Below are positions 2,204 through 26,444 of a stretch of 28,192 nucleotides of DNA, piece by piece. Where the stretch lies: IMG/VR virus record IMGVR_UViG_3300027644_000672, positions 1 through 28,192 of that record; one strand, given 5' to 3'. The translations under genes were made by a program, and so were the position numbers. The stretch is from a virus (taxonomy: Duplodnaviria > Caudoviricetes). Below the pieces are notes generated by a model. The model searched no databases and was not told where the DNA came from. It saw only the letters and a program-made list of their open reading frames with translations. Within the stretch, counting starts at the first letter, position 1. Each line of letters opens with the position of its first letter.

Positions 2204-2242
2204 TGATATATGTCCTTTGAGTTTGCAAGTTAGATCGGCAGA

Positions 2243-6095: not shown

Positions 6096-6172
6096 TGGTC
6101 GGAGTACAAGGATTCGAACCTTGGACCCCCTGGTCCCAAACCAGGTGCGCTACCAGACTGCGCCACACTCCG
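6096..6172 (-). tRNA. tRNA-Pro(TGG)
   Basis: Cloverleaf, loop TTTGGGA, TTCGAAT T-loop, encoded CCA. Confidence 0.95.
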
Positions 6173-6178
6173 AATTAC

Positions 6179-6253
6179 TGGTGCCCAATGTCTGATTCGA
6201 ACAGACGACCTACCGCTTACAAGGCGGTTGCTCTACCCCTGAGCTAATCGGGC
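6179..6253 (-). tRNA. tRNA-Thr(TGT)
   Basis: Cloverleaf, loop CTTGTAA, CCA. Confidence 0.95.
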
Positions 6254-6271
6254 AATACTTTACCTATATAA

Positions 6272-6346
6272 TGGTTGCGGGGGAAGGACTCGAACCTCCG
6301 GCTTCCAGGTTATGAGCCTGGCGGTCTACCACTGACGTACCCCGCG
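6272..6346 (-). tRNA. tRNA-Met(CAT), initiator-like
   Basis: CGCGGGG start, C1:A72 mismatch, loop CTCATAA, CCA. Confidence 0.9.
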
Positions 6347-6353
6347 ATAATGT

Positions 6354-6923
6354 TTACAAAAGACCTTCTGCTGTCAAATGTTGCACAGTCTGCTCACTCA
6401 GAGCAATGTCTATGCGCACATTCAATTCCAACACTTCGTCTTGCAATTTTTGTTTGGCCTTTTTGGCACTGGTCACAATGGCCTTGAAACCTTTGATATC
6501 AGCTTCTGTGAACACTGTGGTGGTCACTGTGCTTTCAAAACCGTAGATACTGCGAGTATCTTCTTTACGGTTTTTAATCTTGTCCAACTTGCCCAACACG
6601 ACTGCTTCTTGTTCACGAACTTCATTTGCACTCAATGCTGTGTAGTTCTGAATCTGCTTTTCAAGAAAGGCAATCTGAGTCAGCTTGTCGTCTACGCCCA
6701 CACGGCTGTTGACAGCACTGACCTGCGCACGAATGTCATACAGAGCTCGTACCAAAGCATCACGTCGGGCCAGATTGGCCTTAAACTCTGCGGTGGCCTT
6801 GTCAATTTCCACCACAGGAGCGTGGAACTCTGTCAAGCTGACTTGACCTTTAAGGTCGATACCTTTGACAGCATCGTTGATGCTGTTCTGCAATGCACTT
6901 GCTTTACGTAGACTGATATTCAT
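6354..6923 (-). CDS. Hypothetical helical/coiled-coil protein
   Basis: ATG at 6923 (MNISLRK) with SD AAGGA, preferred to the ORF-track start at 6941. Confidence 0.75.
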   Translation of the reverse strand: MNISLRKASALQNSINDAVKGIDLKGQVSLTEFHAPVVEIDKATAEFKANLARRDALVRALYDIRAQVSAVNSRVGVDDKLTQIAFLEKQIQNYTALSANEVREQEAVVLGKLDKIKNRKEDTRSIYGFESTVTTTVFTEADIKGFKAIVTSAKKAKQKLQDEVLELNVRIDIALSEQTVQHLTAEGLL

Positions 6924-6940
6924 ACATTTCCTTTTGATCA

Positions 6941-6969
6941 ATTATACAACAAAAAAATAACGAAGTCAA
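6941..6969 (-). promoter_or_regulatory. sigma70-type promoter
   Basis: TTGACT-17 nt-TATAAT. Confidence 0.75.
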
Positions 6970-6974
6970 GAAAG

Positions 6975-7227
6975 CAAGTGACCAACTGGACAAATAACAG
7001 TGAGATTGATCTCTCAATCTCTCACAAGTCACAATGCACAAAGCACAGAGACCTGCATATGTCTGGTTAGCAAATCACAAAGTTGATAGATAAAGACCAG
7101 TTCACACAAGCACGAGGCGTTTTCAAGGCGCCGGCCAGAGTTTGTTCATCGTCGCATGAAGCGATAATGGGTGTCAGCTCTCGTCTCTTTCTCTTCTCCG
7201 GGCAGTTGCCAAAGGCCTACTGCCAAA
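6975..7227 (-). ncRNA. Putative structured non-coding RNA
   Basis: No credible ORF; hairpins GGCAGU..ACUGCC and GAGAUUGA-GAGA-UCAAUCUC; heptamer UUGUG repeats. Confidence 0.4.
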
Positions 7228-7228
7228 A

Positions 7229-7323
7229 ACACTTTATTGAAACACACTTAAACCGTTCTTCAACCTGGATCTGGCTATCTCGGGGTATCCACCCGCGAAT
7301 CAGTATGTGCTTCAATAAAGTGT
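7229..7323 (-). repeat. ~20-bp inverted repeat enclosing ~53 nt (stem family member D)
   Basis: ACACUUUAUUGAAGCACAUACU / AGUGUGUUUCAAUAAAGUGU. Confidence 0.7.
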
Positions 7324-7524
7324 CCGGCTACTCCCACCACAGGAGCCCCGGACCGGGCTGACTACTCCGTCTACGTATTTGTTCTTATGGTAAAGGTTAG
7401 CGTTCCTCACCCTAGGCAGTTTTCAGTATCTCCGAACAGGAGACTGTAAGGTCAGGTCCTAGTGTACCCCCTGTTCTATCGTTTCAGGGACGCTGTTTTA
7501 TAACGTAAAAACAGTAAACCGGGA
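7324..7524 (-). ncRNA. Putative multi-helix non-coding RNA
   Basis: Helices CUGUUUU/AAAACAG, CCCUG/CAGGG, CUAGG/CCUAG, CUCC/GGAG, GUCCGG/CCGGAC directly 3' of tRNA-Ser. Confidence 0.5.
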
Positions 7525-7525
7525 T

Positions 7526-7615
7526 TGGCGGAAGCGGTGAGATTCGAACTCACGATACGATTACTCGTATGCTGGTTTAGTAGACCAGTTCCATCGGCCA
7601 CTCGGACACGCTTCC
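7526..7615 (-). tRNA. tRNA-Ser(ACT), atypical A34 anticodon
   Basis: Class II body, G73, stem CTGGT/ACCAG, loop CTACTAA, CCA. Confidence 0.85.
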
Positions 7616-7623
7616 TATTCTGT

Positions 7624-7652
7624 ATTATAACACTCGCAGGGTTGACTGTCAA
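7624..7652 (-). promoter_or_regulatory. Consensus sigma70 promoter
   Basis: Perfect TTGACA-17 nt-TATAAT, 8 nt upstream of tRNA-Ser(ACT). Confidence 0.85.
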
Positions 7653-7669
7653 CTCTGCAGTTGTCCAAA

Positions 7670-8170
7670 TCATCTGCGACTGTTAACCGTACTGCGCTGT
7701 TGTGCAGTGCCCAGACCTCTGAATCGATCTGCGGCATAGCTGGCAGCAAATGCATCGGGTTTGACCAGTGGTGTCACATTGCAGGTACCTTTGATGTAGC
7801 CCACTGCTTGAGATATCACACAGCTGGATCCGAATTGGTCGTTGGGGTTGATGTCCAAGTGAACTTCAACAGGACGATGTTCCAACACTTCGCCTAGGCG
7901 TAGATACAGTTCTGACACCTTGTACACTTCGGTCATAAGCCGCATGCGTGGCTGTGAAGTTTTTTGATCATAGTCACGTTCACGTTGCACTTCACCAAAC
8001 AGTTTGCAACCGTTGTTGCCGTTGATGTGTACCACAATGGCCAACACATAGTCGGCATACCAAACGCCGTTGACTCGAACACGTTCACTGTCACAGCCCA
8101 GGTAGATTTTTGTTTCTGGGGTTTGTTCTTCGATAAAAGCCTTGACTTCTTCTAGATTGAGCTTTTTCAT
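7670..8170 (-). CDS. Ribonuclease H-like YkuK-family protein
   Basis: KIYLGCDS, E in RLMTEV, EVHLDIN, KPDAFAASYAADR motifs. Confidence 0.8.
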   Translation of the reverse strand: MKKLNLEEVKAFIEEQTPETKIYLGCDSERVRVNGVWYADYVLAIVVHINGNNGCKLFGEVQRERDYDQKTSQPRMRLMTEVYKVSELYLRLGEVLEHRPVEVHLDINPNDQFGSSCVISQAVGYIKGTCNVTPLVKPDAFAASYAADRFRGLGTAQQRSTVNSRR

Positions 8171-8188
8171 ATCGTTGTCTCTAATAAT

Positions 8189-8262
8189 TGGAGCGGGATA
8201 GGAGAATCGAACTCCTGACTAAACCTTGGCAAGGTTTCGTTTGACCATTAAACTAATCCCGC
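8189..8262 (-). tRNA. tRNA-Gly(GCC)
   Basis: Loop TTGCCAA, U73, CCA. Confidence 0.95.
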
Positions 8263-8275
8263 ATCTACTAACATG

Positions 8276-8358
8276 TGGTGGGCAAGGAGAGACTCGAACT
8301 CTCACGCACTAGGCACTGGCTTCTAAGACCAGCGTGGCTACCATTACACCACTTGCCC
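8276..8358 (-). tRNA. tRNA-Leu(TAG)
   Basis: Loop CTTAGAA, long variable arm, CCA. Confidence 0.95.
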
Positions 8359-8367
8359 ACAATAATT

Positions 8368-8443
8368 TGGCTCCCCAGCGTGGGATCGAACCACGGACAC
8401 CTTGATTAACAGTCAAGTGCAACTACCGCTGTGCTACTGGGGA
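8368..8443 (-). tRNA. tRNA-Asn(GTT)
   Basis: Loop CTGTTAA, CCA. Confidence 0.95.
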
Positions 8444-8450
8444 ATATTTT

Positions 8451-8609
8451 TTACTTGCGTTCTTTGAACGACTGCGGCACTGCGGCCGACAACTGTGCAT
8501 CAATCATGGCTCGCTTGAACTCGTTGCGATCGTGTTGATCTTTAAACTTTAGCAATGCCAGCAATGTTTTTGTTCGCTTGGCCAGTTTGAATGTTGATGT
8601 TGATCTCAT
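8451..8609 (-). CDS. Small basic hypothetical protein (52 aa)
   Basis: MRSTSTFKLAKRTKTLLALLKFKDQHDRNEFKRAMIDAQLSAAVPQSFKERK; SD AAGGA; TAAATA upstream at 8631-8636. Confidence 0.7.
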   Translation of the reverse strand: MRSTSTFKLAKRTKTLLALLKFKDQHDRNEFKRAMIDAQLSAAVPQSFKERK

Positions 8610-8662
8610 TGGAGTCCTTGTTGTGTAAAATATTTATTGCTATCTCTTGTCTGCAGATAATT

Positions 8663-8736
8663 TGGTGCTCAAGTACAGAATCGAACTGTCGACTGCTCCT
8701 TACCATGGAGCCGTTATGCCACTTAACTACAAGAGC
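8663..8736 (-). tRNA. tRNA-Thr(GGT)
   Basis: Loop ATGGTAA, CCA. Confidence 0.95.
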
Positions 8737-8738
8737 AA

Positions 8739-8813
8739 TGGTGGTTCCTACTGGGGTCGAACCAGTGACCTCTTGGATGTCGACCAAGCGTTCTACCGCT
8801 GAACTAAGAAACC
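8739..8813 (-). tRNA. tRNA-Val(GAC)
   Basis: Loop TCGACAT (C33), CCA. Confidence 0.9.
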
Positions 8814-8817
8814 AGTC

Positions 8818-8893
8818 TGGGGAGTCGTACGGGAATCGAACCCGTATTAACGGAATCACAATCCGTGGTGTTGACCGTTACACTAACAACTCC
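8818..8893 (-). tRNA. tRNA-His(GTG)
   Basis: Loop TTGTGAT, encoded G-1:C73 pair, CCA. Confidence 0.95.
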
Positions 8894-8894
8894 A

Positions 8895-9788
8895 TTATTT
8901 GTTGAGTGGAGAACTCCAAGACACAATTGAATTCAAAATTGGAACCAGGTGTTCTTCTTCCACTGCTGTGCTTGATTTTATACAAACACAGTTAAACTTG
9001 TCAATATTATCTAGTTTTAAAAATTCTTCAATGGTATAGTGGTCAGCATGCTGTTTCCAGTAACCAGTGGTGTCATCATAAATGCTTAATCGATTTTGAA
9101 ATTGAAATTCAGCATCGGGGTTTTTTTGTAACCCTAGATTGCCCAAAAGTTCATATTCGCTAAACCAAATTGGAGGAGAATTGTCGGGACTAGCATTGAC
9201 ATCAGCGGAAAACACCTGTGCCATGGCCAGTAACCAATTACATCCGTATGTTTGTTCTATGTGATTTTTCAGTGCCACCCAGTCTTTCTTTAGCACAGGC
9301 ATAAATTCTGTGACAAAACAATGACTGGTTTGACGTTCCTGCCCTGTAAACTTTTTTACGTATTGATAATATTCTAAACTGTGTGTGGTATTTTCTATCA
9401 CGTAATACCTTGGGGTTGACCCATCAAAATATCGATAAGGCGTCAACGAAAACGTATCACAATCTTGAATCAACACACGGTCGCTGTTGACTTGATCCAG
9501 TGCCAGTAATTTAAAAAATTGCTGGGCTATCCATCCTGAGAATTGGTAATAGTCAAACTCTGGAAGCAACTGTCGTTCCATCAATTGCTGGTCAAAAACA
9601 ACAGTCATGTTTGAAGTATCAATGCCATGATCTCGGTAAATCTGTAACAGATCAATTGGTTCTCGATTATGGTCTGGGCCAAAACAAATGTATGTTTGGT
9701 CAGGTTGTGGGTCAAGAAAGTGATCAAACTTTAAGGTAAGTATTGAATCTGCAATTCTTGAACCTGCAACAAAAAATAATCTTATCAT
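8895..9788 (-). CDS. DUF6492-like putative glycosyltransferase
   Basis: GWIAQQFFKL, DCD (DxD) and FSEYELLGN motifs. Confidence 0.6.
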   Translation of the reverse strand: MIRLFFVAGSRIADSILTLKFDHFLDPQPDQTYICFGPDHNREPIDLLQIYRDHGIDTSNMTVVFDQQLMERQLLPEFDYYQFSGWIAQQFFKLLALDQVNSDRVLIQDCDTFSLTPYRYFDGSTPRYYVIENTTHSLEYYQYVKKFTGQERQTSHCFVTEFMPVLKKDWVALKNHIEQTYGCNWLLAMAQVFSADVNASPDNSPPIWFSEYELLGNLGLQKNPDAEFQFQNRLSIYDDTTGYWKQHADHYTIEEFLKLDNIDKFNCVCIKSSTAVEEEHLVPILNSIVSWSSPLNK

Positions 9789-9828
9789 CCTCTATTTATT
9801 TGACGATATCATCGTCAATTGAGTATTG

Positions 9829-9903
9829 TGGCCTCGCCTGCAGGAATCGAACCCACATTCAAGAGGTAGAAGCTCTTTGTATTATCCATTATACTAAGGC
9901 GAG
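9829..9903 (-). tRNA. tRNA-Arg(TCT)
   Basis: Loop CTTCTAC, CCA. Confidence 0.95.
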
Positions 9904-9906
9904 AAT

Positions 9907-9980
9907 TGGCAGAGGGTACTGGGATCGAACCAGTGATGACAGAGTCAAAGTCTGTAGTGTTACCGCTACACTAACCCCCA
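9907..9980 (-). tRNA. tRNA-Gln(TTG)
   Basis: Loop CTTTGAC, CCA. Confidence 0.95.
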
Positions 9981-9994
9981 ACAAAATGTTACCG

Positions 9995-10070
9995 TGGTGG
10001 TAATAGTTGGACTCGAACCAACGATAGGCTGCGTATGAAGCAACTGCATTAGCCACTATGCTATATTACC
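9995..10070 (-). tRNA. tRNA-Met(CAT) elongator (or Ile2)
   Basis: Loop TTCATAC, paired 1:72, CCA. Confidence 0.9.
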
Positions 10071-10178
10071 ATATAGAAACATACTCCGCAGGAATTGAAC
10101 CTGCCCACCCAACATGTCGTCGAGCTGTAATCCGCTACATCTGCCTGGCCTAAGCATTTGAATATGTTTTTATATGGT
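10068..10178 (-). ncRNA. Stem-enclosed tRNA-like RNA (stem family member C)
   Basis: 19-bp inverted repeat enclosing 73 nt that end in a T-arm GCAGG-UUCAAUU-CCUGC. Confidence 0.5.
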
Positions 10179-10248
10179 AGGGGTGCTCGGGAACGATCCG
10201 AGTTTTACTGGTTAAAAGCCAGTTACTTCACCTTAAAGTTTCACCCCC
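10175..10248 (-). tRNA. tRNA-Lys(TTT), non-canonical T-loop
   Basis: Loop CTTTTAA; T-arm CTCGG-ATCGTTC-CCGAG; CCA. Confidence 0.9.
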
Positions 10249-10374
10249 TAATGGGTTTTGTTTTTGTGCTCGTCGTAGAGCCTTGTTGCTCTTGCGATGC
10301 GCACCTGCTTTGCGGAACAGTGCAAGACGAACGAAGCAGTTACGTTCGCGCACGATCGGTTTACGTTTCTTCAT
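10228..10374 (-). CDS. Small highly basic protein (48 aa) with its stop codon inside tRNA-Lys
   Basis: MKKRKPIVRERNCFVRLALFRKAGAHRKSNKALRRAQKQNPLGGETLR*; SD AAAGGA. Confidence 0.65.
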   Translation of the reverse strand: MKKRKPIVRERNCFVRLALFRKAGAHRKSNKALRRAQKQNPLGGETLR

Positions 10375-10395
10375 AAAGTTTCCTTTGTTTTAAAT

Positions 10396-10470
10396 TGGTA
10401 GGCCCTGAGAGAATCAAACTCCCACTTCCGGGTTCGTAGCCCAGTGTAATATTCATTTTACTAAAGGCCT
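10396..10470 (-). tRNA. tRNA-Arg(ACG)
   Basis: Loop CTACGAA; D-loop GA and T-loop TTTGATT; CCA. Confidence 0.9.
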
Positions 10471-10474
10471 AAAT

Positions 10475-10548
10475 TGGTGGAGGATAAGAGAATCGAACTC
10501 TTAATTGAAGCTTGCAAAGCTACCGTTATCCCATTTAACTAATCCCCC
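10475..10548 (-). tRNA. tRNA-Ala(TGC)
   Basis: Loop TTTGCAA, G3:U70, CCA. Confidence 0.95.
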
Positions 10549-10551
10549 ATA

Positions 10552-10740
10552 TGCTCTGCATCCCCCGGCGGTAATTGTAGTACATCAGACCTTTGGAGTC
10601 ATCACACATACCTTCCACCCGCTTCCCGACAGGAACCGTTATCGCATTGCCAGCGGCCTTTCGGTTCAAAGACTACCACCCGTGGCTATCACACCACTTC
10701 TCATCGTGCGGGTCGCACTATCTGTTGATTAAACAGAACG
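10552..10740 (-). ncRNA. Putative pseudoknotted ~190-nt non-coding RNA
   Basis: Closing stem GUUCUG/CAGAGC; crossing helices ACCCGC/GCGGGU and GGUGGUAGU/AUUACCGCC; GAAA tetraloop. Confidence 0.55.
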
Positions 10741-10743
10741 TTC

Positions 10744-10829
10744 TGGTGGAGGTGATAGGGATCGAACCTATTGAGACCTGAGTCCGGCGGAGTTACAGTC
10801 CGCTGCCATACCATTACGGCGGCACCTCC
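10744..10829 (-). tRNA. tRNA-Tyr(GTA)
   Basis: Loop CTGTAAC, long variable arm, CCA. Confidence 0.95.
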
Positions 10830-10835
10830 TAAACT

Positions 10836-10919
10836 TGGTATGAGCGGAGGGACTTGAACCCTCAATCCCGAAGGCGGCAGATTTTAAGTCTGCTGTGTAT
10901 ACCATTCCACCACGCTCAC
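10836..10919 (-). tRNA. tRNA-Leu(TAA)
   Basis: Loop CTTAAAA, long variable arm, CCA. Confidence 0.95.
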
Positions 10920-10927
10920 ATAATTCT

Positions 10928-11001
10928 TGGTGCCCCATGACAGAATCGAACTGCCGTAACCTGATTACAAAACAGGTGTAATGCCATTATACTAATAGGG
11001 C
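10928..11001 (-). tRNA. tRNA-Thr(TGT), second copy with divergent sequence
   Basis: Loop TTTGTAA, U31:U39 mismatch, CCA. Confidence 0.9.
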
Positions 11002-11062
11002 GTGTTGAGTTCGAACTTACCTAGACAGCGTGACTTTCTCTTGCTGACACTCTAACAAAACT

Positions 11063-11137
11063 TGGTACTCGATAGCGGAATCGAACCGCTCTTACCGGGA
11101 TGAAAACCCGGTGTCCTAACCGATAGACGAATCGAGC
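11063..11137 (-). tRNA. tRNA-Glu(TTC)
   Basis: Loop TTTTCAT, CCA. Confidence 0.95.
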
Positions 11138-11140
11138 ATG

Positions 11141-11184
11141 AAAAGAAAAACCCTGTAGCAGTCCAGTTAAGCAACCGAACAGGG
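11141..11184 (-). terminator. Terminator-like hairpin with U-tract
   Basis: CCCUGU...ACAGGG followed by UUUUUCUUUU; loop is unusually large. Confidence 0.4.
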
Positions 11185-11198
11185 CCGTGTTAAAGGAG

Positions 11199-11260
11199 GA
11201 GAGCCACGGTTGCAGGACCTAGTGCCTCAAAGAGGGAAGTGTCCAGGCGATGTGGCTCTC
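11199..11260 (-). ncRNA. Small GC-rich stem RNA
   Basis: 9-bp GAGAGCCAC/GUGGCUCUC closing an internal CCUGG/CUAGG and CCUC/GAGG stack. Confidence 0.4.
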
Positions 11261-11268
11261 AAAAAAAT

Positions 11269-11344
11269 TGGCGGTCTTAGGGGGTAACGATCCCCACTCT
11301 TATGGCGTGACAAGCCATCGTGCGTCCATGAACACTTTAAGACC
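11269..11344 (-). tRNA. tRNA-Asp(GTC), non-canonical T-loop
   Basis: Loop TTGTCAC; T-loop ATCGTTA; G73; CCA. Confidence 0.9.
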
Positions 11345-11346
11345 AA

Positions 11347-11559
11347 CTATATTAAAAAATACTAAAGGAACCATTGTGCATCTGTCTCTACCCTATGCAA
11401 CGTCTACATAGGGCCTGCACGGTCATTACTTCCTAGAAGGCCCACCGCAAATCCGGATTGCTCCTGCTTCATGCTCCTGGACTTGACCAGCGCCCGTCGG
11501 TACTGTCATCATCCCAGTCGCCTAGTGGTCTAGGTAACCTTTAATATGTTTTAAAATAG
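11347..11559 (-). ncRNA. Stem-enclosed ~170-nt structured RNA (stem family member B)
   Basis: 22-bp imperfect inverted repeat; internal helices CCCUAUGUAG/UUGCAUAGGG, GUGCA/UGCAC, CUGG/CCAG. Confidence 0.55.
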
Positions 11560-11588
11560 CAACCCTTGCGGGTTACCAAAAACAACAA

Positions 11589-11623
11589 CTTTTTAAAGAA
11601 CGTCTAGTTAATTTCCTAACTAG
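11589..11623 (-). promoter_or_regulatory. boxB-like hairpin plus boxA antitermination-like site
   Basis: CUAGUUA-GGAAAU-UAACUAG then CGUUCUUUAAAAAG (rrn boxA consensus UGCUCUUUAACA). Confidence 0.6.
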
Positions 11624-11628
11624 TCTCT

Positions 11629-11657
11629 AGTATAGCACAATGGCTATATCTAGTCAA
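11629..11657 (-). promoter_or_regulatory. sigma70-type promoter P2
   Basis: TTGACT-17 nt-TATACT. Confidence 0.75.
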
Positions 11658-11726
11658 TTTGTTTTGCAAACACCCTACAACATGTAGGGTTATTTGCAGA
11701 TCCAGTTAATTTCTTAACTTGCTTCT

Positions 11727-11755
11727 ATTGTAGCAAATTGCCGTTAATTGGTCAA
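11727..11755 (-). promoter_or_regulatory. sigma70-type promoter P1
   Basis: TTGACC-17 nt-TACAAT; part of a ~98-bp duplicated unit. Confidence 0.7.
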
Positions 11756-11796
11756 CTTAGTACTTTAGTTAACACTACTTGCAGTAGGGTTATTGT

Positions 11797-11870
11797 TGGC
11801 GTACCTCCAGGGACTCGAACCCCGACGAACAGTTTTGGAGACTGTCATGCTGCCATTACATTAGAGATAC
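11797..11870 (-). tRNA. tRNA-Trp(CCA)
   Basis: Loop CTCCAAA, G73, CCA. Confidence 0.95.
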
Positions 11871-11876
11871 ACTGAC

Positions 11877-11951
11877 TGGTAGCCATGGACAGTTTCGAAA
11901 TGTCGACCTAACGCTTATCAAGCGTTTGCTCTTCCTCTGAGCTACACGGCT
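11877..11951 (-). tRNA. tRNA-Ile(GAT)
   Basis: Loop TTGATAA, CCA. Confidence 0.93.
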
Positions 11952-11958
11952 AAATTTT

Positions 11959-12033
11959 TGGCGGGTCCTGCAGGAATCGAACCCACACCACTTGGTTCGA
12001 AGCCAAGCATGATATCCATTTCACCAAGGACCC
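11959..12033 (-). tRNA. tRNA-Arg(TCG)
   Basis: Loop CTTCGAA, CCA. Confidence 0.93.
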
Positions 12034-12037
12034 AGAT

Positions 12038-12113
12038 TGGTACCAACGACTGGACTCGAACCAGTCACACCCAGATTTTCAGTCTGGTGCTCTACCTGAT
12101 GAGCTACGTTGGC
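12038..12113 (-). tRNA. tRNA-Phe(GAA)
   Basis: Loop CTGAAAA, CCA. Confidence 0.95.
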
Positions 12114-12118
12114 AATGT

Positions 12119-12208
12119 TGGCGGTGTGACTGAGACTCGAACTCAGAACCCGGATTACGCCGAGCGACAGATTAGCAATCTGCTCTAATACCATTATAGG
12201 ACCACACC
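12119..12208 (-). tRNA. tRNA-Ser(GCT)
   Basis: Loop TTGCTAA, long variable arm, G73, CCA. Confidence 0.93.
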
Positions 12209-12214
12209 GTTGTT

Positions 12215-12306
12215 TGGCGGAAGACGGAGGAGTCGAACCCCATCCCTGTTAAGAGAACCTGGTTTTCAAGGCCAGTCGCAGGACCAACCCCGCTGCATCA
12301 TCTTCC
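12215..12306 (-). tRNA. tRNA-Ser(TGA), 8/4 cloverleaf
   Basis: Acceptor GGAAGATG/CGTCTTCC (8 bp), T-stem GGGG/CCTC (4 bp), loop CTTGAAA. Confidence 0.85.
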
Positions 12307-12312
12307 TGAATT

Positions 12313-12404
12313 TGGTAGCCCCGGCGGGATTCGAACCCACATGAACCAATTATCTGTTGCTTACGGGATATAAATCCGCCGTTTTACCATTAAACTACAG
12401 GGCC
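12313..12404 (-). tRNA. tRNA-Ile(TAT) with ~22-nt variable region
   Basis: Loop TTTATAT, normal D and T arms, A73, CCA. Confidence 0.8.
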
Positions 12405-12408
12405 AATG

Positions 12409-13179
12409 TTATAAATTTTTAAACGCTTTCTTTATAATTGCATTGCGATCCAGTTTGGAACTGGCACCCAACACAATCACTGCATACTGTTGCCGGTTGT
12501 GTTCCACCAACATGGCCACACACCACCCAGCTGGCGTGGTAAATCCAGTCTTGCTCACAGCCACACGGTCAAACTCTGCCATCAGTTGTTGAGATGTGTG
12601 AATGAGATTCAAAGTGTTGCCACGAGTTCGGTCTGACTTTTTTAACTGTACAGTGGGTTGACCGCTGACTTCTTGTATAAACCAATAACCGGCAGCAATC
12701 TGCACCATCTCCGCCAGGTCCTGCGCAGTGGTCACATTGAACACGCCCAGTCCCGACGGATCTACAAATTTAGTATTTCGAAGATCCCACATTTTAGCAT
12801 GCCGATTCATCTCAGCTACAAATGCAGATCGGCCCCCGGGATAGTCCTGTGCGATGGCTTCGGCTGCTCCGTTGTCACTGCTGACCAACATGGCCTTTAA
12901 CAACTGCTCTCTGGTGTACTGACCAGGCGGCAATCGACTACCGCTGTTTTTCCCCAACATCATTGGCTGTAGTAGATCTCTGTTGTGATCCAGTGCGACC
13001 ATGGCAGTCATCAGCTTGGTTATACTGGCCATGGATCTCACCTGATCGGCATAACGGTTCAGTTCCGTGTGCTGTGCGTTGATGTTGTAGACCAACACTG
13101 TGGGCTCACTGGTTCGAGCTGTAGCATTGGTCAATGCTGCACAAAAAAACACAATGGCAAATAATTTCATATTTTTCAT
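12409..13179 (-). CDS. Peptidase S11 (D-Ala-D-Ala carboxy/endopeptidase, PBP7-like)
   Basis: SxxK (ASITKLMT), SDN and KTG motifs, signal peptide; start trimmed to 13179 (or 13170) because the ORF-track start lies inside tRNA-Cys. Confidence 0.9.
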   Translation of the reverse strand: MKNMKLFAIVFFCAALTNATARTSEPTVLVYNINAQHTELNRYADQVRSMASITKLMTAMVALDHNRDLLQPMMLGKNSGSRLPPGQYTREQLLKAMLVSSDNGAAEAIAQDYPGGRSAFVAEMNRHAKMWDLRNTKFVDPSGLGVFNVTTAQDLAEMVQIAAGYWFIQEVSGQPTVQLKKSDRTRGNTLNLIHTSQQLMAEFDRVAVSKTGFTTPAGWCVAMLVEHNRQQYAVIVLGASSKLDRNAIIKKAFKNL

Positions 13180-13190
13180 TTTATAAAATT

Positions 13191-13267
13191 TGGAGTGGGT
13201 GACAGGACTTGAACCTGCATGATACGGATTTGCAATCCGGGGCCTAACCATTCAGCTACACACCCAC
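13191..13267 (-). tRNA. tRNA-Cys(GCA)
   Basis: Loop TTGCAAA, U73, CCA; slightly long acceptor-D linker. Confidence 0.88.
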
Positions 13268-13292
13268 ACGTAACACACTGTCGCCAATGTGT

Positions 13293-13348
13293 GTATTAAA
13301 GCACTCTAAAATACTTAGGCTGCCTGTTCTTAAAGAATGCTTTAATAC
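13293..13348 (-). repeat. 15-bp inverted repeat (stem family member A)
   Basis: GUAUUAAAGCAUUCU / AGAGUGCUUUAAUAC. Confidence 0.7.
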
Positions 13349-13412
13349 GAACCGATTTTTCCTCCCATACAAGGGATTTCATCCTGGCCGCCGCCCGTTT
13401 GTGCTTGTTTAT

Positions 13413-13442
13413 AGTGTAGCACAGGACCTCGTTTCCTGTCAA
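13413..13442 (-). promoter_or_regulatory. sigma70-type promoter
   Basis: TTGACA-18 nt-TACACT with TGn extension. Confidence 0.6.
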
Positions 13443-13456
13443 CACTTTAAGAAGAT

Positions 13457-13618
13457 CTATGTCAAAAGCTGATTCTTGACTCGTTTGCGATTTTCGGATT
13501 CTATCCGAGCACGTTCCAATTTATCTCGTATCAACTGATTTCGCTGATCCGCAGTCAGAGTATGCTCTGTGGTAAATCTTACTTCGCGCATTCTTCGTTT
13601 TAAATCTGATTTTTTCAT
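13457..13618 (-). CDS. Small basic hypothetical protein (53 aa)
   Basis: MKKSDLKRRMREVRFTTEHTLTADQRNQLIRDKLERARIESENRKRVKNQLLT; SD AAGGAG. Confidence 0.7.
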   Translation of the reverse strand: MKKSDLKRRMREVRFTTEHTLTADQRNQLIRDKLERARIESENRKRVKNQLLT

Positions 13619-13630
13619 TTTCTCCTTGCT

Positions 13631-13667
13631 AAAAACAAAAAACCCTAGGGTTTTAATCCTAGGGTCC
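13631..13667 (-). terminator. Intrinsic terminator (attenuator)
   Basis: GGACCCUAGG-AUUAAAAC-CCUAGGGUUUUUUGUUUUU. Confidence 0.85.
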
Positions 13668-13692
13668 TTGGAGTTTAACTGTAAACTGTTGC

Positions 13693-13839
13693 TTACAATT
13701 TGGTCTCCCGGACCCTGGTAACCTCTGGTGTGCGATCATATGACATGCTATTAATTGCAAACCAAATAGAGGGCGTGAAGCCCGCCTGCTTGGCAGAACA
13801 ATTTGATATAGAATGTAACAAGTTCGTTTGCATTTTCAT
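13693..13839 (-). CDS. Putative attenuator leader peptide (48 aa, contains all 20 amino acids)
   Basis: MKMQTNLLHSISNCSAKQAGFTPSIWFAINSMSYDRTPEVTRVRETKL*; codons 42-45 are complementary to the terminator 5' arm; SD weak. Confidence 0.6.
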   Translation of the reverse strand: MKMQTNLLHSISNCSAKQAGFTPSIWFAINSMSYDRTPEVTRVRETKL

Positions 13840-13882
13840 TTCTTTAAAATTTACATGAGCCGTTTTATCAGCGCATGTGTGT

Positions 13883-13911
13883 ATTGTATAGGTTTATTTA
13901 TACAAGGTCAA
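13883..13911 (-). promoter_or_regulatory. sigma70-type promoter with nested TATAAATA late-type motif
   Basis: TTGACC-17 nt-TACAAT; TATAAATA at 13895-13902. Confidence 0.75.
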
Positions 13912-13969
13912 CCCTCAGGTTGTCCAAATTGCTGTTTTTTTGCCAATATTTTTTAGTGCAGGCCGATCT

Positions 13970-18476: not shown

Positions 18477-19373
18477 TTATTTGCCCCAGCCGTTGCCCCA
18501 CAAGTCCACATGCAATCGAGGACTGTAATAGTAGCCCCGGCTGCAAGCCCAGTCTGCTACTCTAACACGATTCTGTGAATAAGGAGTGACCACACCACCT
18601 TGTGGCATAACATATACAACACCGGTAAAGCCACCAGCACGGAATTCTTTTACTGCTTGTTCAACTTCTGCAAAGTGTTCTTCTGTTTCCACAACAAATT
18701 TAAGATAGGTGGTGCCAATGTCTTGATAACTGGCCACTATGTCAGGGCAGATGGCTTCAGACCACCGTTCGCCACTGGCACTGAGCTTGGGACTGACACT
18801 GAAAGTGAGTTGACCTGGGGTACGTCGAACAGCTCGACTGTTCAGTTTGCTGTTCAGTGTCCAATTAAGCAGATACTGCCTAAACTGTGGGTTTAGAGCC
18901 TGAGTACCATTCGTTTCAAATGTGATATTCTGTAGATCCAACATGGCAGGACCACTCAACAGTTCCGGATATGTACGTTGCCAGCCCAACAAAGGTTCAC
19001 CACCTGTGATGACCAAATGAACATCGTTGCCGTTGTCCTGTATCCATTTGTGATTGGGTGTCAGGACCAGCATTTGATCCACCAGCTTGTCTGTGTCAAT
19101 GGTCGGACTTAGGTCTTTAAAGTCCGGATGCCAACTGGCATAACTGTCACAGCCGGTATTGACCAGTGGCAAGTCTTCAAACTTTGAAAACGGTTGGATC
19201 ATGACATGTTTGGCTGCAATGTCAGTGGCTTCGTGGCTTAGTTGACCGGGCGGCATACCAAAACCGGCGCACTTAAAGTTACACCCAAAGGTGCGTAGAA
19301 ACACTGATGGGACACCAATAAAGCGTCCTTCACCTTGTGCGGAATAGAATAGTTCAGATACTTTTAATTTCAT
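18477..19373 (-). CDS. queE: 7-carboxy-7-deazaguanine synthase (radical SAM)
   Basis: ELFYSAQGEG, FLRTFGCN, ITGGEPL, ETNGT, SVSPKL, PRLH; clustered with folE and queD. Confidence 0.85.
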   Translation of the reverse strand: MKLKVSELFYSAQGEGRFIGVPSVFLRTFGCNFKCAGFGMPPGQLSHEATDIAAKHVMIQPFSKFEDLPLVNTGCDSYASWHPDFKDLSPTIDTDKLVDQMLVLTPNHKWIQDNGNDVHLVITGGEPLLGWQRTYPELLSGPAMLDLQNITFETNGTQALNPQFRQYLLNWTLNSKLNSRAVRRTPGQLTFSVSPKLSASGERWSEAICPDIVASYQDIGTTYLKFVVETEEHFAEVEQAVKEFRAGGFTGVVYVMPQGGVVTPYSQNRVRVADWACSRGYYYSPRLHVDLWGNGWGK

Positions 19374-19378
19374 GTACT

Positions 19379-19408
19379 ATTATACAATAACTGTTTATGA
19401 CTTGTCAA
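19379..19408 (-). promoter_or_regulatory. sigma70 promoter, probably giving a leaderless queE mRNA
   Basis: TTGACA-18 nt-TATAAT, 5 nt before ATG, no SD. Confidence 0.7.
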
Positions 19409-20306
19409 CTAAATTTTTAATAATACGACCAACACCTTGTTCAAATGACATGGGCGCATAGTCCGGCATGACCGATCTGAGTTTGTCAATGTTGGGCCTA
19501 CGAGTAGCAGTGCTGCCGGCTCGGCCAGGTGTGGCGGTCCAGGCTGGGTCAGTATGTCCAAATTCGGTAGCAATGACCTTCACTGCATCCATAATGGTAA
19601 TTTCTCTGTCATTGCCAACGTTGAACAGTTGATTGACCTGTGTTTCGGCACAGAATATTGTGGCACGAACAGCATCTTCCACATGACAGAAACTGCGTGT
19701 TTCTTCTGGACCAACCACTTGGAATACACCATTTTGGATCTTGGCAATTTGGTCTGCCAGGAAGTGACCGGCCTTGCTGTTGTCGCCGTACACGTTGAAG
19801 TAACGTATCATCACATAGGGCAATGGGCTATTGGTCAAGTAGTTTTCTGCACAGATCTTGGGCAGGCGATAACTCCATCTGGCATTGTGGATGTTGTTGA
19901 TTGTGATGTCAGTGTGTTCGGCCACTGGACTCACAGGATCATCGCTGACCACTTCACTGCTGGATGCATACACTAATTTTTTCAATTGCGTGTTCATGCC
20001 GGCAAACTCAAATATATTAAAGTCTCCCACCATGTTGTTCCATAACACTTGGTTTGGACGCTCGTAAAAGTTTTTGGTTCCGTTGATTGCACCATAGTGA
20101 TAGATGTAATCAAAGTCCACCGGCAGGTTGGCGTAGGCTACATCACCGGCAGTCAAATCCACATCGATGAACTTGTCACAGGGAGGAATGGTTGAGCTGC
20201 GACTATGGTTATCCATGGCCCACACTTCGTTGTTGGAATTTTCTTTCAGCTGTCGGCAGATTTCTGTGCCCAACAAGCCGCTGGCACCGGTTACTAGTAT
20301 TTTCAT
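19395..20306 (-). CDS. NAD-dependent epimerase/dehydratase (extended SDR)
   Basis: TGASGLLG, ASSSEV, YRLPK (YxxxK), RYFNVYG, RSFCHVED. Confidence 0.9.
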   Translation of the reverse strand: MKILVTGASGLLGTEICRQLKENSNNEVWAMDNHSRSSTIPPCDKFIDVDLTAGDVAYANLPVDFDYIYHYGAINGTKNFYERPNQVLWNNMVGDFNIFEFAGMNTQLKKLVYASSSEVVSDDPVSPVAEHTDITINNIHNARWSYRLPKICAENYLTNSPLPYVMIRYFNVYGDNSKAGHFLADQIAKIQNGVFQVVGPEETRSFCHVEDAVRATIFCAETQVNQLFNVGNDREITIMDAVKVIATEFGHTDPAWTATPGRAGSTATRRPNIDKLRSVMPDYAPMSFEQGVGRIIKNLVDKS

Positions 20307-21076
20307 TTGTTAAATTTCTCGTTGTCGTTGATTACCGATTGGATCAGGCCAAACTCTAGACCTAGATCTTTTATCAGATTGTTCCATGCACTGGTATCTT
20401 TGGGCAAACAGTGTCCACCGTAGCCACGCATGTTTGGATTGGCCATTAGGTAATGTGGATTGATACAGTCACGCTTGGTGATGGCCTTGTACACGTTCAT
20501 GTAGTTGGCGCCCAGCTTGTCGCATACTTCATAAGTGATGTTGGCAAAGGTCACACTCATGGCATGATGTACGTTGTTGAAGTACTTGATCACTTCAGCT
20601 TCAGTGGGCGTCACGCGAGCAATGTTTTCGGGAAAACTGCCGTGTATCTCCACAATCAAGTCAGCATCGGCTTTGTTGTTACAGCCTACTACCAACAGGT
20701 CGTGATTGTAAACAAAGTCAGCCAGCGCACTTTTTGCACGGAGAAATTCTGGTACCATGCTCAATCTCAACTGAGGGTACAACGTTTGTAGTCGATCAGT
20801 TGTGCCAGGGATCACTGTGCTCTTGATACTGATTAATCCCTTGTAATCAGCTTTGGCCAGATCTTCGATTGTACGATCAATAATTGACACGTCACAGTCG
20901 CCGTTGGCAGCCTGATTGGTTGGCACACTGATAAACACACAGTCTGTGTCCAACACATGGTCCAGCACTGATCCTTCATATGCTGGATCAAAGAACGACA
21001 TAGTGTGTCCTAAATATTCTAGCCCTTCGTACACAGCTTTGCCCACTGTGCCTTTTCCAATTATACCTATTTTCAT
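20303..21076 (-). CDS. UDP-glucose/GDP-mannose dehydrogenase family, lacking the C-terminal domain
   Basis: GKGTVG, KSTVIPGT, PEFLR, GYGGHCLPKD. Confidence 0.88.
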   Translation of the reverse strand: MKIGIIGKGTVGKAVYEGLEYLGHTMSFFDPAYEGSVLDHVLDTDCVFISVPTNQAANGDCDVSIIDRTIEDLAKADYKGLISIKSTVIPGTTDRLQTLYPQLRLSMVPEFLRAKSALADFVYNHDLLVVGCNNKADADLIVEIHGSFPENIARVTPTEAEVIKYFNNVHHAMSVTFANITYEVCDKLGANYMNVYKAITKRDCINPHYLMANPNMRGYGGHCLPKDTSAWNNLIKDLGLEFGLIQSVINDNEKFNK

Positions 21077-21690
21077 ATTGCATCCTCAAATGTTATGTCT
21101 ACACAAGTACTAGCACCGGTGCCTGTTGCCAGTTTAAAAATGTCCTGCGCTACCCGCTCGGGCAAAAGATAATCCAACGCAGGATCTTTTGCTTGGCCAC
21201 CTGTGGCCATTCGAGTTAGTGTCCTTACTGGGTTAACCAAATGAACACGTATGTCAGTGTTGACAAGATTCTCACTGACTCCTTGCCACAAGTTGTACAA
21301 GGCTGCCTTGCTGGCACTGTACAACGGATATTGTTTTCTTCCGCCAGTGTAGCTGCTGGATCCCACCATCACTATGTTCACCGGTTTCTTTTGATTGCCA
21401 GTGTAAAGATAGTGCCGCATGATGGACCAATTGCTGCCTACATTCACTGACATGGTCTCTTGATGATCTGACAAGTGTCCGCTTACAAACACTCCGGCGC
21501 AGTTGATCACAATATCTGGATCCAGCACACTTAGAAATTTGTGTATCTCTTGATCAGCCGTAGGCAGTTTTAAATCAATAATTGCACGGTCAACATCAAC
21601 AATCTTGTATTCAGCAGGATCGAATAGCCGCCTTACAGCAGAGCCAATACCGCCACCGGCACCAAAAATAGCAACAGCTGGGCGTGTCAT
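21073..21690 (-). CDS. Short-chain dehydrogenase/reductase
   Basis: GAGGGIG, NCAG, YSASK. Confidence 0.9.
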   Translation of the reverse strand: MTRPAVAIFGAGGGIGSAVRRLFDPAEYKIVDVDRAIIDLKLPTADQEIHKFLSVLDPDIVINCAGVFVSGHLSDHQETMSVNVGSNWSIMRHYLYTGNQKKPVNIVMVGSSSYTGGRKQYPLYSASKAALYNLWQGVSENLVNTDIRVHLVNPVRTLTRMATGGQAKDPALDYLLPERVAQDIFKLATGTGASTCVDITFEDAI

Positions 21691-22094
21691 TGGCCCACTA
21701 TGCTGTCTACACGATAGGTATCTGACTCGTAGTCAGCACCGCCGCGTGGGCCGGCTGCATAGGCAACAAACGTACAGCCATCGGCGCCGGCCTTCATGCC
21801 ATGTATTTCGTTGGGTTCGCTGATCAGCATGTCACCAGGACCTGCTACAAACAGTTCAGCTGCTTGGTCGGAATCCACTGGTCTTGAGTAATAACTGAGA
21901 CTGCCACTCAATACCAATGTGTACTGTGTGGTCAGCTTGTGATAGTGATTGCCACGTACAGCACCGGGTGCGTTGGTGATCACACAGCCATGATTGATAT
22001 TTTGAGAATAAAATAAATCGGTAATTGTGCCGCGCTCGTCGGTGAATTGTCCTAACCCGGGTTCTGAGTTGGTGTGTATATTGTAGTGTTTCAT
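21687..22094 (-). CDS. Cupin, NDP-sugar epimerase/isomerase-like (RmlC/FdtA-like)
   Basis: FTDERG, RGNHYH, distal H. Confidence 0.8.
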   Translation of the reverse strand: MKHYNIHTNSEPGLGQFTDERGTITDLFYSQNINHGCVITNAPGAVRGNHYHKLTTQYTLVLSGSLSYYSRPVDSDQAAELFVAGPGDMLISEPNEIHGMKAGADGCTFVAYAAGPRGGADYESDTYRVDSIVGQ

Positions 22095-23311
22095 TGTGAA
22101 ATAAATCTAGTTTGTGGATTGATATTTAGTATGGCCTTTCGGAGCCCTTCCCCAATGTTCCAACTCAATATCAGTGCATACGGATTCTTGTGCTGAGCAA
22201 ACTCTTCATCTGCTAGAATTGGAATCCGTGTTAATGGTGTAAATTTTCCCTGTTTAAACTCACTAGAGTCGGTCACACAGTGCAGATGTGTTGCATTAAG
22301 ACCGTGCCAGGTCAGCCAGGTATTGGCCTTGGCTGCTGCTCCTACTCCAATGAACACAGCATCAGGTTCTGCTGTTCTTATTGCATAAAAATTTGCCAAC
22401 CAACAGTCTCGGTTCTGTGCAAATTGTGTCTGTAGCTGTGTGTAAAAATCTCGGGAGAACAAGCCCATCTCGGTTTCACGATCAATTGCCTGTGCTACCT
22501 GCAATGGCATGGCAGCACCGGTGTCCCGACGAGCAAACATTCGTAAACTGCCGCCGTGATAGTTGACCACATCAAAATCTACAATTTCAAGCCCGGCTGT
22601 TTTCAACAGATTCCACACGCTCTTCACTGTGAAATAACTGGGATGTTCGTGATACACCATGTCCACAAACCGCCCAGACTCAATCATACTGGCCCAATAT
22701 GGCACTTCAAAAACAAACAGGCCGTCTGCGCTCAACAACTGTTCAACACACCGGGCAAAGGCCACAGGATCGTTGGCATGGTTAAACACATTGTTGGCCA
22801 TAATTACCTGTGCCGGTCCGTGTTGCTCCAACAGTGTCACAGCAACTGCCTCGTTAAACAATGCATTCACAGTGGCAACACCACGTGACTCAGCCACTCG
22901 GCACATGTCTGCACTTGAATCAACGCCCACTGCATTATCACCAAACTGACCAATCAAGTAGCCGTCGTTGCTACCAATTTCCACTGCAAAACCTGTTGGG
23001 CATCGTTGCTTGACAGTGGCAGCATACTCATCCCAATGATCCCTTGCAGTTTTGGAATTGCTGGATGTGTAACTGTAGCTGTAGAGGTTGTAGCGATCTT
23101 CAGCTGAACTTGCATAGCCCAATTGTATACTGCCGCTGTCGGCATTCATGTACACATGCAGTGGAAAAACTGGTTCACTGAGATTCAATTGATCTGCACT
23201 GACAAAGGTGTCGGCAAATGCATGCTGACCAAAATCTAATATTTTCTCCACTGGTGCAGAAGTCAGCATGCACCGATCAATTAGTTGACTGTAGGTAATG
23301 GTGTTGTTCAT
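22091..23311 (-). CDS. NDP-hexose C-methyltransferase
   Basis: EIGSNDG, NNVFNH, FEVPY, YHEH, HGGSLR, GAAAKA, WN motifs; start reassigned to ATG 23311 (ATGA overlap). Confidence 0.88.
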   Translation of the reverse strand: MNNTITYSQLIDRCMLTSAPVEKILDFGQHAFADTFVSADQLNLSEPVFPLHVYMNADSGSIQLGYASSAEDRYNLYSYSYTSSNSKTARDHWDEYAATVKQRCPTGFAVEIGSNDGYLIGQFGDNAVGVDSSADMCRVAESRGVATVNALFNEAVAVTLLEQHGPAQVIMANNVFNHANDPVAFARCVEQLLSADGLFVFEVPYWASMIESGRFVDMVYHEHPSYFTVKSVWNLLKTAGLEIVDFDVVNYHGGSLRMFARRDTGAAMPLQVAQAIDRETEMGLFSRDFYTQLQTQFAQNRDCWLANFYAIRTAEPDAVFIGVGAAAKANTWLTWHGLNATHLHCVTDSSEFKQGKFTPLTRIPILADEEFAQHKNPYALILSWNIGEGLRKAILNINPQTRFISQ

Positions 23312-24129
23312 GATAATTTTACCTTGTACTGTGACATCTGCTTGTTGACATCCATCAGTCTTAATTTTTCCCAAGGATCCTGAGTTCCGGCCTTGACACT
23401 GTTCCACCAGGGTAAGGAACTGGCATTGCCTTGCGACAACATGTAGGTCATCAAAGTTTCGCAGTCTCGGTATCGCCGTTGTATAGTGGCAGGATAATGA
23501 AAATCCAATGGACTCTTGGGGTTGTGTTCGAATCGACTCTTGGGCTTGAGTGGATCAGTGGCATCCTTGGTCAGTTCAACCTGATTGTGCGTGGCATGCA
23601 CATCAATCACCTGCATGATGTCCAACATGAATGCCATTTGGCTAACTTCGGCGTCGATCATCTGATGTCGACTCAACAAGCCCATAACCTCAAACCAGGC
23701 CCTAGGCACAATGGGAAATATGCTGTAGGGATGGTCGTTGTGAGTGTGCAGTTTCAGCAGACGGAACTGACCAGTATACTGACTGATCACTGTGTCCCAG
23801 CCAGGTGTGTCCATCACAGCATCGTCGTTCCACACAAACAACCAATCAGCATCAGCTGACTTGGCCAGATGATTGTAGTATCTATTGAGTCCAGCGTAGC
23901 CCATACTTTTGAATAGCTGTGCTTCGTACGCCAGTTCAGTCTGATCTAACCACGGCTGTATCACTTTAGAAAAATGATCCAGTCCTGCGGTATCGTCGTC
24001 GTCGAATCCCAACAACAGTTGAATGGAGGACAAATTATCTGCTGATTTTACTATACTGCTTATACTTTGAGTAAGAGCTGTGGTTCTACTTCTGGTGGGT
24101 AGCAATACTGCTATTTTGTATTCACTCAT
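23308..24129 (-). CDS. GT-A fold glycosyltransferase (GT2-like)
   Basis: VLLPTRSR, FDDDD, WNDD motifs. Confidence 0.75.
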   Translation of the reverse strand: MSEYKIAVLLPTRSRTTALTQSISSIVKSADNLSSIQLLLGFDDDDTAGLDHFSKVIQPWLDQTELAYEAQLFKSMGYAGLNRYYNHLAKSADADWLFVWNDDAVMDTPGWDTVISQYTGQFRLLKLHTHNDHPYSIFPIVPRAWFEVMGLLSRHQMIDAEVSQMAFMLDIMQVIDVHATHNQVELTKDATDPLKPKSRFEHNPKSPLDFHYPATIQRRYRDCETLMTYMLSQGNASSLPWWNSVKAGTQDPWEKLRLMDVNKQMSQYKVKLS

Positions 24130-24145
24130 ATACTGTATTTAAATT

Positions 24146-24691: not shown

Positions 24692-24699
24692 TGATTTCT

Positions 24700-24763
24700 C
24701 CTATGTTGATTATAGCATAGGCAGCGGAGTTTGTATAGCGGGTCGATGCTCTAAAGTCCGCTG
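24700..24763 (-). promoter_or_regulatory. preQ1-I-like riboswitch candidate with SD-sequestering hairpin
   Basis: P1 AGCGG/CCGCU, loop GAG pairs with CUC after the AUACAAA tail; CCUAUG/CAUAGG hairpin overlaps SD AGGAG; directly upstream of queD. Confidence 0.55.
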
Positions 24764-24782
24764 AAGAAGAATATTTATTCTG

Positions 24783-25202: not shown

Positions 25203-25242
25203 ATTGGTTCCTTTTATATGACAGTAATATACAATAACATTT

Positions 25243-26402: not shown

Positions 26403-26444
26403 TTTGTATTTCTCCGAGTTAGTGACGTGGATGTCGTGTGTTAT

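Follow-up and report, generated by a model that had tools for sequence, protein, structure and literature searches.

A candidate ribosome-coupled attenuator with a leader covering all 20 amino acids at the head of a phage tRNA array

Known attenuators and the layout of the locus

In the leaders trpL, hisL, pheL, thrL, ilvL and pheM-pheST, codons for 1-3 cognate amino acids stand in runs, and leaders of the trp type terminate when they are untranslated. Attenuation by an upstream ORF is known in kind, and the nearest precedent for the locus described here is the whiB7/wblC uORF of Actinobacteria. In the available part of that report, efficient translation leads to the terminator and stalling to the antiterminator, the composition of the uORF sets which starvations are sensed (a Trp-less variant served as a test), and the M. 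smegmatis uORF contains all amino acids except Cys (10.1101/2023.06.02.543512). Why phages carry tRNA arrays, and how these are regulated, is an open question. Phage tRNAs are described as a counter-defence to PrrC, retron-Eco7, PARIS and VapC (PMC11555353; see also PMC10264068 and PMC11464382), which explains the need of a phage for extra tRNA once that of its host is cut, and dose matters against tRNA-cutting defences; T5-like phages have a strong promoter for their tRNAs, and "attenuat" does not occur in the accessible text (PMC11555353). Full-text searches of a collection in which subscription journals are mostly missing turned up no report of tRNA genes controlled by leader-peptide attenuation, and the terms "attenuat" and "leader" are absent from PMC7824862, PMC6102473 and PMC11242549.

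The locus lies in a 28,192-nt virus record (Duplodnaviria; Caudoviricetes; IMGVR_UViG_3300027644_000672), hereafter the window; judged by one gene, the cultured phages closest to it are the jumbo phages Phosso, PA5oct/Paride, Atu_ph07 and SCTP-2. Like trpL, hisL, pheL, thrL, ilvL and pheM-pheST, it combines a promoter, a short ORF and alternative antiterminator and terminator structures, with a fixed stop distance and, as predicted, negative feedback on the supply that would be sensed. Unlike the trp, his, phe, thr and ilv leaders, it has no cognate run, includes all 20 amino acids, is predicted to adopt the antiterminator as its untranslated fold, precedes tRNAs instead of biosynthesis or synthetase genes, and matches no Rfam leader. 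With whiB7, as far as the available text describes it, the leader shares an ORF of broad composition whose completion favours the terminator, here in silico. The whiB7 uORFs, however, control a transcription factor and are longer, Ala-enriched and often devoid of several amino acids, whereas the present leader, compared by architecture only, has about 46 codons, appears to be selected for completeness, is phage-borne and heads tRNA genes, with a phage tRNA array and a 53-aa ORF downstream and not the whiB7 of Actinobacteria.

The initial annotation placed a promoter, a 48-codon ORF and an intrinsic terminator in this order, and a promoter scan and the ORF listing bear out the arrangement (Table 1). 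The ORF exists as described from an upstream ATG (13839-13693, 48 aa), but its start does not hold: that ATG is missing in 10 of 12 close homologues and retained by two identical copies only, so the conserved leader comprises 46 codons from 13833. Because the sequence 5' of the promoter diverges among these 12 homologues, the cassette behaves as a unit. Transcription is predicted to start at about 13876. Contigs from four of 18 listed RNA runs were compared with the window. One such contig (13392-13877, including the terminator) ends at 13877, in weak agreement, and another extends beyond the promoter; strand, level and termination are not readable from such contigs.

Table 1. Positions of the leader cassette, the downstream elements and neighbouring features in the window
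Feature	Position	Strand	Remarks
Sigma-70-type promoter of the leader	13883..13911	-	TTGACC-17-TACAAT, 10/12; promoter scan
Leader ORF, 46 codons + stop	13693..13833	-	All 20 amino acids, complete by codon 38
Candidate pause hairpin within the ORF	13724..13766	-	Trp-xxx-Ala-Ile codons pair with Asp-Arg-Thr-Pro codons
Antiterminator 5' strand (final leader codons)	13705..13718	-	Folding; all three frames; covariation
Antiterminator inner stem over the stop codon	13677..13700	-	Folding
Antiterminator 3' strand, overlapping the terminator 5' arm	13658..13673	-	Folding
Intrinsic terminator	13631..13669	-	12-bp stem (13669-13638) + T tract; scan and folding
53-aa basic ORF, optional in the family	13457..13618	-	
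Motif 2, second conserved structured RNA	13334..13448	-	No Rfam match
Two hairpins after motif 2	13270-13335	-	Long variable hairpin closed by ATTAAAGCA/TGCTTTAAT; ACACATT...AGTGTGT hairpin directly 5' of first tRNA; both recur in most homologues
tRNA array	6096..13267	-	All 20 amino acids; ORFs and internal promoters interspersed; ARAGORN 28 + Ser(TGA) by eye
Host-like envelope genes	574-3205, 12409-13251	-	TctC receptor, porin, D-Ala-D-Ala carboxypeptidase (last inside the tRNA array)
Two tandem promoters	11629-11755	-	Each followed by a similar AGTTA(A/G)GAAATTAACT hairpin
tRNA-Ser with unusual anticodon ACT	7526-7615	-	Behind a perfect 12/12 promoter; in 3/35 arrays
Non-coding stretch, ~470 nt	7050-7520	-	From tRNA-Ser(ACT) to the next ORF; no Rfam match
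QueE-like, PTPS/QueD and GTP cyclohydrolase I genes	18477-26480	-	QueE-like gene assigned by reading, itself without Pfam match

The leader family and the genes behind it

The leader family belongs to giant lake phages. A search for the core antiterminator/terminator pattern returned at least 120 viral stretches from an estimated total of 340, and together with earlier loci these gave 115 distinct sites. An ATG ORF of 38-56 codons ending 9-28 nt past GGGTCC is present at 107 of them against about 5% expected by chance, and we reject a chance ORF; the other eight sites were left out of the leader set. Leader length is kept at 40-54 codons, and 102 of 105 homologues have a promoter scoring at least 10/12 no further than 130 nt from the leader ATG. 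Twenty-two leaders start no more than 10 nt from the -10 box and are probably leaderless, and an SD-like core (AGGA, GGAG or GAGG) precedes only 34 of the 78 leaders having longer 5' regions. Where 600 nt or more of 3' DNA is available, which is the case for 67 leaders, a sense tRNA invariably lies downstream. The family shows the short ORF between promoter and intrinsic terminator that characterizes an attenuator.

The leader peptide itself found no match in a word-indexed protein search and no family in PHROGs, and positions 13270-13920, compared with cultured phages by blastn, had no matches beyond 32-nt ones at chance level, while a leader-profile search matched 201 protein clusters with a conserved Trp and Asp-Arg. 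Because the leader alignment was too variable to seed, we used motif 2 as an independent locus seed. It recovered at least 121 of about 350 stretches, and the 71 sites with sufficient upstream DNA yielded a terminator in 60 and an automatically called leader in 52; the remaining 19, inspected by eye, mostly have a terminator-like hairpin or a shorter leader, and two have neither. In five loci (L206, L213, L216, L198 and L158) inspection by eye showed leaders of only about 22-35 codons, again accompanied by this terminator and by motif 2.

Cultured jumbo phages also carry the leader–antiterminator–terminator layout at the heads of tRNA clusters, namely Phosso (a leader of 54 codons that begins with GTG and has 19 amino acids), Atu_ph07 (42 codons, 18 amino acids) and SCTP-2; Paride has no such leader ahead of its main tRNA cluster. 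The Salicola phage SCTP-2 has three leaders, each matching in composition the tRNA cluster behind it: one rich in Asn/Asp/His/Ile/Met before Asp-His-Met-Ile-Met, one rich in Lys/Phe/Ser/Gly/Ala before Lys-Phe-Trp-Val-Ser, and a third, whose computed antiterminator is weak, rich in Thr/Arg/Ser/Glu before Ser-Glu-Thr.

As first annotated, the window array holds 29 tRNAs for 20 amino acids; the one found by eye, Ser(TGA) at ~12306-12215 on the minus strand, is missed by both ARAGORN and Rfam at default thresholds, as is an atypical Tyr-like tRNA in relatives. When a leader lacks an amino acid, the array behind it tends more often to lack the corresponding tRNA (8/15 vs 97/625, counted over related sequences with incomplete flanks), and many all-20 leaders head arrays that lack several tRNAs within the flank seen. 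The AGT codon occurs in 93% of leaders, an observation to set beside the tRNA-Ser(ACT) gene. A GC-richer non-coding stretch at about 11380-11560, after the tandem promoters, may be a structured RNA.

The annotation also suggested that internal promoters may bypass the attenuator. Promoter-like sites are indeed common within the arrays: of 30 long arrays 29 contain them, the 30 together have 157 in sense and 49 in antisense orientation, and a median of 4 of 21 tRNAs lie ahead of the first, and in the window a 12/12 promoter lies at 7652 while eight tRNAs precede the promoter at 11755; the site at 13413, on the other hand, overlaps the conserved motif 2. These sites, together with the position of motif 2 after the terminator in most loci, are what one would expect if the attenuator served the 53-aa protein and motif 2, with the tRNAs transcribed mainly from internal promoters and merely nearby. 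We regard this reading as improbable. The 53-aa ORF is absent from 17 of 67 loci, all of which have tRNAs, which also weakens the proposal that the leader mainly controls this ORF. Furthermore, the first tRNA of SCTP-2 and of Atu_ph07 lies about 30 and about 124 nt past the terminator without motif 2, and leader composition tracks the cluster in SCTP-2. The 53-aa protein has no Pfam match, a weak match to an unnamed PHROG and Atlas scores of at most 0.78, and a SufB label from one source is unsupported by its length. Since internal promoters are common, the leader is probably a booster of the tRNA array and not its sole switch, with the internal promoters probably supplying basal expression of the later tRNA blocks.

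Amino-acid coverage and the predicted switch

Using a start rule blind to composition, the first ATG in range, we found that 83 of the 106 distinct viral leaders include every one of the 20 amino acids and that another 17 include 19, whereas pooled leader composition predicts 4.0 complete leaders among the 106. Equal-length segments of phage ORFs cover all 20 in 4.5-6.4% of cases, so a single complete leader would be weak evidence, but the family is not. Nor does shared ancestry account for the coverage, because among leaders at less than 50% identity 22 of 31 are complete against 3.2+/-1.7 after column permutation, with none of 1000 permutations reaching 22. The profile search agrees: among the 150 clusters listed, out of 201, 126 are 38-56 aa long, and of these independent 50%-identity representatives 83 are complete compared with 22.6 after permutation. 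Small ORFs just downstream are never complete (0/46). Cys, Phe, Tyr and His each occupy 17-21 alignment columns, Cys 17 and yet nearly always as a single residue, and their positions shift among leaders while completeness holds. There is no run of cognate codons, and per-amino-acid counts are under-dispersed. We take this as strong statistical evidence that the leader is under selection for amino-acid completeness, as judged from sequence comparison.

At the level of codons the signal is different in size. The presence of all 20 amino acids and 36 distinct codons in the window leader was confirmed. The annotation cautioned that this codon diversity is only slightly above random; in the family, 34.95 distinct codons against 32.4-34.2 in three nulls is a real but small effect among related sequences. 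With 36 of 61 codons used, the leader samples every amino acid and not every isoacceptor; the claim that loss of any tRNA is sensed goes too far. Upstream of the Trp codon, four-fold-box NNT codons are avoided (38/290 vs 0.31 background) and NAT codons favoured (69/96 vs 0.58), a bias that one would expect if codons read by a single tRNA were preferred. NAT codons are read by queuosine-type tRNAs, and the window carries QueE-like and QueD genes, although these and the GTP cyclohydrolase I gene may have a role in DNA modification instead.

The only conserved leader residues, Trp and Asp-Arg-Thr-Pro, form the two arms of an RNA hairpin. In 41 of 45 leaders its stability exceeds that of synonymous recodings (another 13, of 58 in all, lack the motif and fall outside this count), and amino-acid changes in the arms preserve pairing. 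On this sequence evidence, the W…DRTP "peptide motif" is an RNA hairpin; it ends just 5' of the antiterminator and may act as a pause hairpin.

The mutually exclusive pairing proposed between 13705-13716 and 13661-13673 recurs in the minimum-energy fold of 13625-13745, although the pairing is longer than claimed, with a further, inner stem that covers the stop codon. This antiterminator fold has -37.7 kcal/mol (z -4.0; 0/200 shuffles as good), and the alternative, the terminator alone, -22.5 kcal/mol. GGGTCC falls in all three reading frames (67/33/6 among 106 leaders), which argues that it is kept for pairing and not for protein. Among the 52 leaders found through motif 2, 25 depart from the seeded core pattern; 17 of these are complete, and in all 25 the pairing within the locus beats the swapped mean (-20.3 vs -14.5 kcal/mol), with compensatory cores such as GGGTCT/AGACCC, GGGTTT/AAACCC, GGGGCT/AGCCCC and GGGTTC/GAACCC in several. 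Thus the family has a covarying antiterminator over the end of the ORF, mutually exclusive with the terminator, as in known attenuators. The stop codon lies 50-66 nt from the T tract in 52 of 52 loci within a search window of 35-100 nt. The homologue comparison proposed at the outset therefore upholds ORF length, stop position, 20-amino-acid coverage and antiterminator covariation alike. A T-box or known riboswitch was rejected, as Rfam returned nothing but tRNAs at the gathering score in the window and, in 20 homologous loci, nothing but tRNA above gathering, with no leader family.

When RNA is masked to the stop, folding gives a terminator probability above 0.9 in 49 of 52 loci. For the unmasked full leader at equilibrium no more than 25 of 52 fall below 0.5, about half of the homologues favouring the terminator, so read-through requires that the antiterminator form first and persist through cotranscriptional kinetics; with early stalls, the model of the window leader yields values of 0.06-0.84. 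On the assumption that a ribosome covers 11 nt from the P site, the nascent antiterminator of the window is predicted to form when the stall is at codon 37 or earlier, to be weaker at codons 38-39 and to be lost from codon 40 onward. Val, the last of the 20 amino acids to occur, is not encoded before codon 38 and so sits at the edge of the predicted sensing window. Across the family all 20 amino acids precede the masked zone in only 29 of 58 leaders and at least 19 in 49 of 58, the marginal residues being Val and Glu, with Val often confined to the tail.

We consider it likely that the locus is a ribosome-coupled attenuator whose leader is selected to contain every amino acid and which boosts transcription of the phage tRNAs upon translational failure. 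Host RNA polymerase would initiate at about 13876, a ribosome would translate the 46 codons behind it, as their conservation suggests, and the W/DRTP hairpin may hold the polymerase until the ribosome arrives. In the folding model, a ribosome that is in time at about codon 39-40 would cover the GGGUCC strand and permit the terminator, whereas a stall at codons 1-37, or a failure to initiate, would allow the antiterminator to form first, given kinetic trapping, and transcription to reach the tRNAs after passing the 53-aa ORF and motif 2. As each amino acid has only one or two codons, the leader would probably respond to severe depletion, for example when host defences cleave tRNAs or when starvation is hard, and also to a general slowing, but not to mild limitation.

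Alternatively, the leader may sense ribosome speed or availability in general (coupling, antibiotics, hibernation or the timing of takeover), its completeness being incidental. The untranslated state is also predicted to read through, and theory, in the part of that paper available, holds that sensitivity is low when regulatory codons make up a small share of a leader (PMC1183508). A pure speed sensor, however, needs no selection of the kind that maintains completeness while Cys, Tyr, Phe and His move, and we judge this explanation slightly less probable still than one centred on the 53-aa protein and motif 2. Amino-acid sensing and general-speed sensing are compatible, and general slowing should also trigger the leader. 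That the 46-aa peptide is a small trans-acting protein and the terminator simply ends its transcript is very unlikely and was rejected despite the 201 profile-matched clusters with their conserved residues, because the pairing strand occurs in three different frames relative to the C-terminal codons, the Trp/DRTP motif belongs to an RNA stem, the antiterminator covaries and PHROGs holds no family for it.

Motif 2 and its possible role in delivering the tRNA array

In most loci motif 2, an RNA of about 115 nt with an estimated 350 viral copies, sits between the terminator and the first tRNA. It consists of a pseudoknot (P1/P3) with an A-rich linker, a hairpin P2, an invariant GGGCGG and a stem P4 with a capping hairpin. 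Two-sided changes occur in 11 of 13 predicted pairs, and the pseudoknot was parsed in 54 of 106 loci, where the P3 cognate helix reaches 4.8 vs 3.0 when swapped. The P2 loop type tracks the junction 5' of GGGCGG (AACGAGG with AAAC, AACGCGA with TAATGA/T), which hints at a tertiary contact. The promoter-like sequence at 13442-13413 overlaps motif 2, its TACACT being one stem strand; a promoter of at least 10/12 overlaps motif 2 at only 5 of 71 homologous sites, and the window copy may still be functional. The two hairpins between motif 2 and the first tRNA are possibly a processing signal. In locus L201 a single array contains motif 2 twice, with about 4.8 kb between the copies; the second copy follows a promoter that has no leader.

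Motif 2 has no Rfam match in the window or in 20 homologous loci and was not found in Phosso, Paride, Atu_ph07 or SCTP-2. Its pattern has 12 matches in 185,579 prokaryote genomes, and only one of the 11 analysed, a 2-kb contig (L278) that is probably a phage piece, carries leader and tRNA. The main text of PMC5737381, whose supplements may list motif 2, names only GOLLD and ROOL near tRNAs.

According to the accessible text of PMC9378689, HK022 put RNA is a processive antiterminator that works without protein, and putL has a 5' helix, a UAAAC/UAAACA linker after its 3' strand and a crossing second helix; motif 2 resembles it in that topology, followed by a GGCGG-containing stem, and in its early place in a long transcript. 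A put RNA binds the beta' zinc-binding domain and suppresses distant terminators. Motif 2 differs in its extra hairpin with an AACG(A/C)G(A/G) loop and in its second domain, and the likeness is topological and generic to H-type pseudoknots. We reject membership in the put family because a motif 2 model, built without pseudoknot pairs, did not match two HK022 stretches containing putL at E<=10; put-like antitermination is thus, by analogy, a hypothesis, and a processing element or a ligand sensor are further candidates. A two-stage alarm, in which the leader would detect the loss of any charged tRNA and a put-like motif 2 would then make polymerase termination-resistant, is a speculative idea that we think unlikely. 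If true, it would deliver the whole 7-kb tRNA array on demand against any tRNA-attacking host defence.

With about 350 copies in viruses, motif 2 is a structured RNA in its own right that is not yet catalogued. Selection on a coding sequence for completeness, with residues that are mobile, is unusual in form and can be measured in this family. The 250-nt cassette is a possible compact reporter for tRNA-cleaving defences, and the leader switch is testable now in the cultured phages Phosso, Atu_ph07 and SCTP-2. If failed decoding raises the array through such a feedback switch, the role of phage tRNAs would lie in tRNA shortage at the time of infection and not in codon usage.
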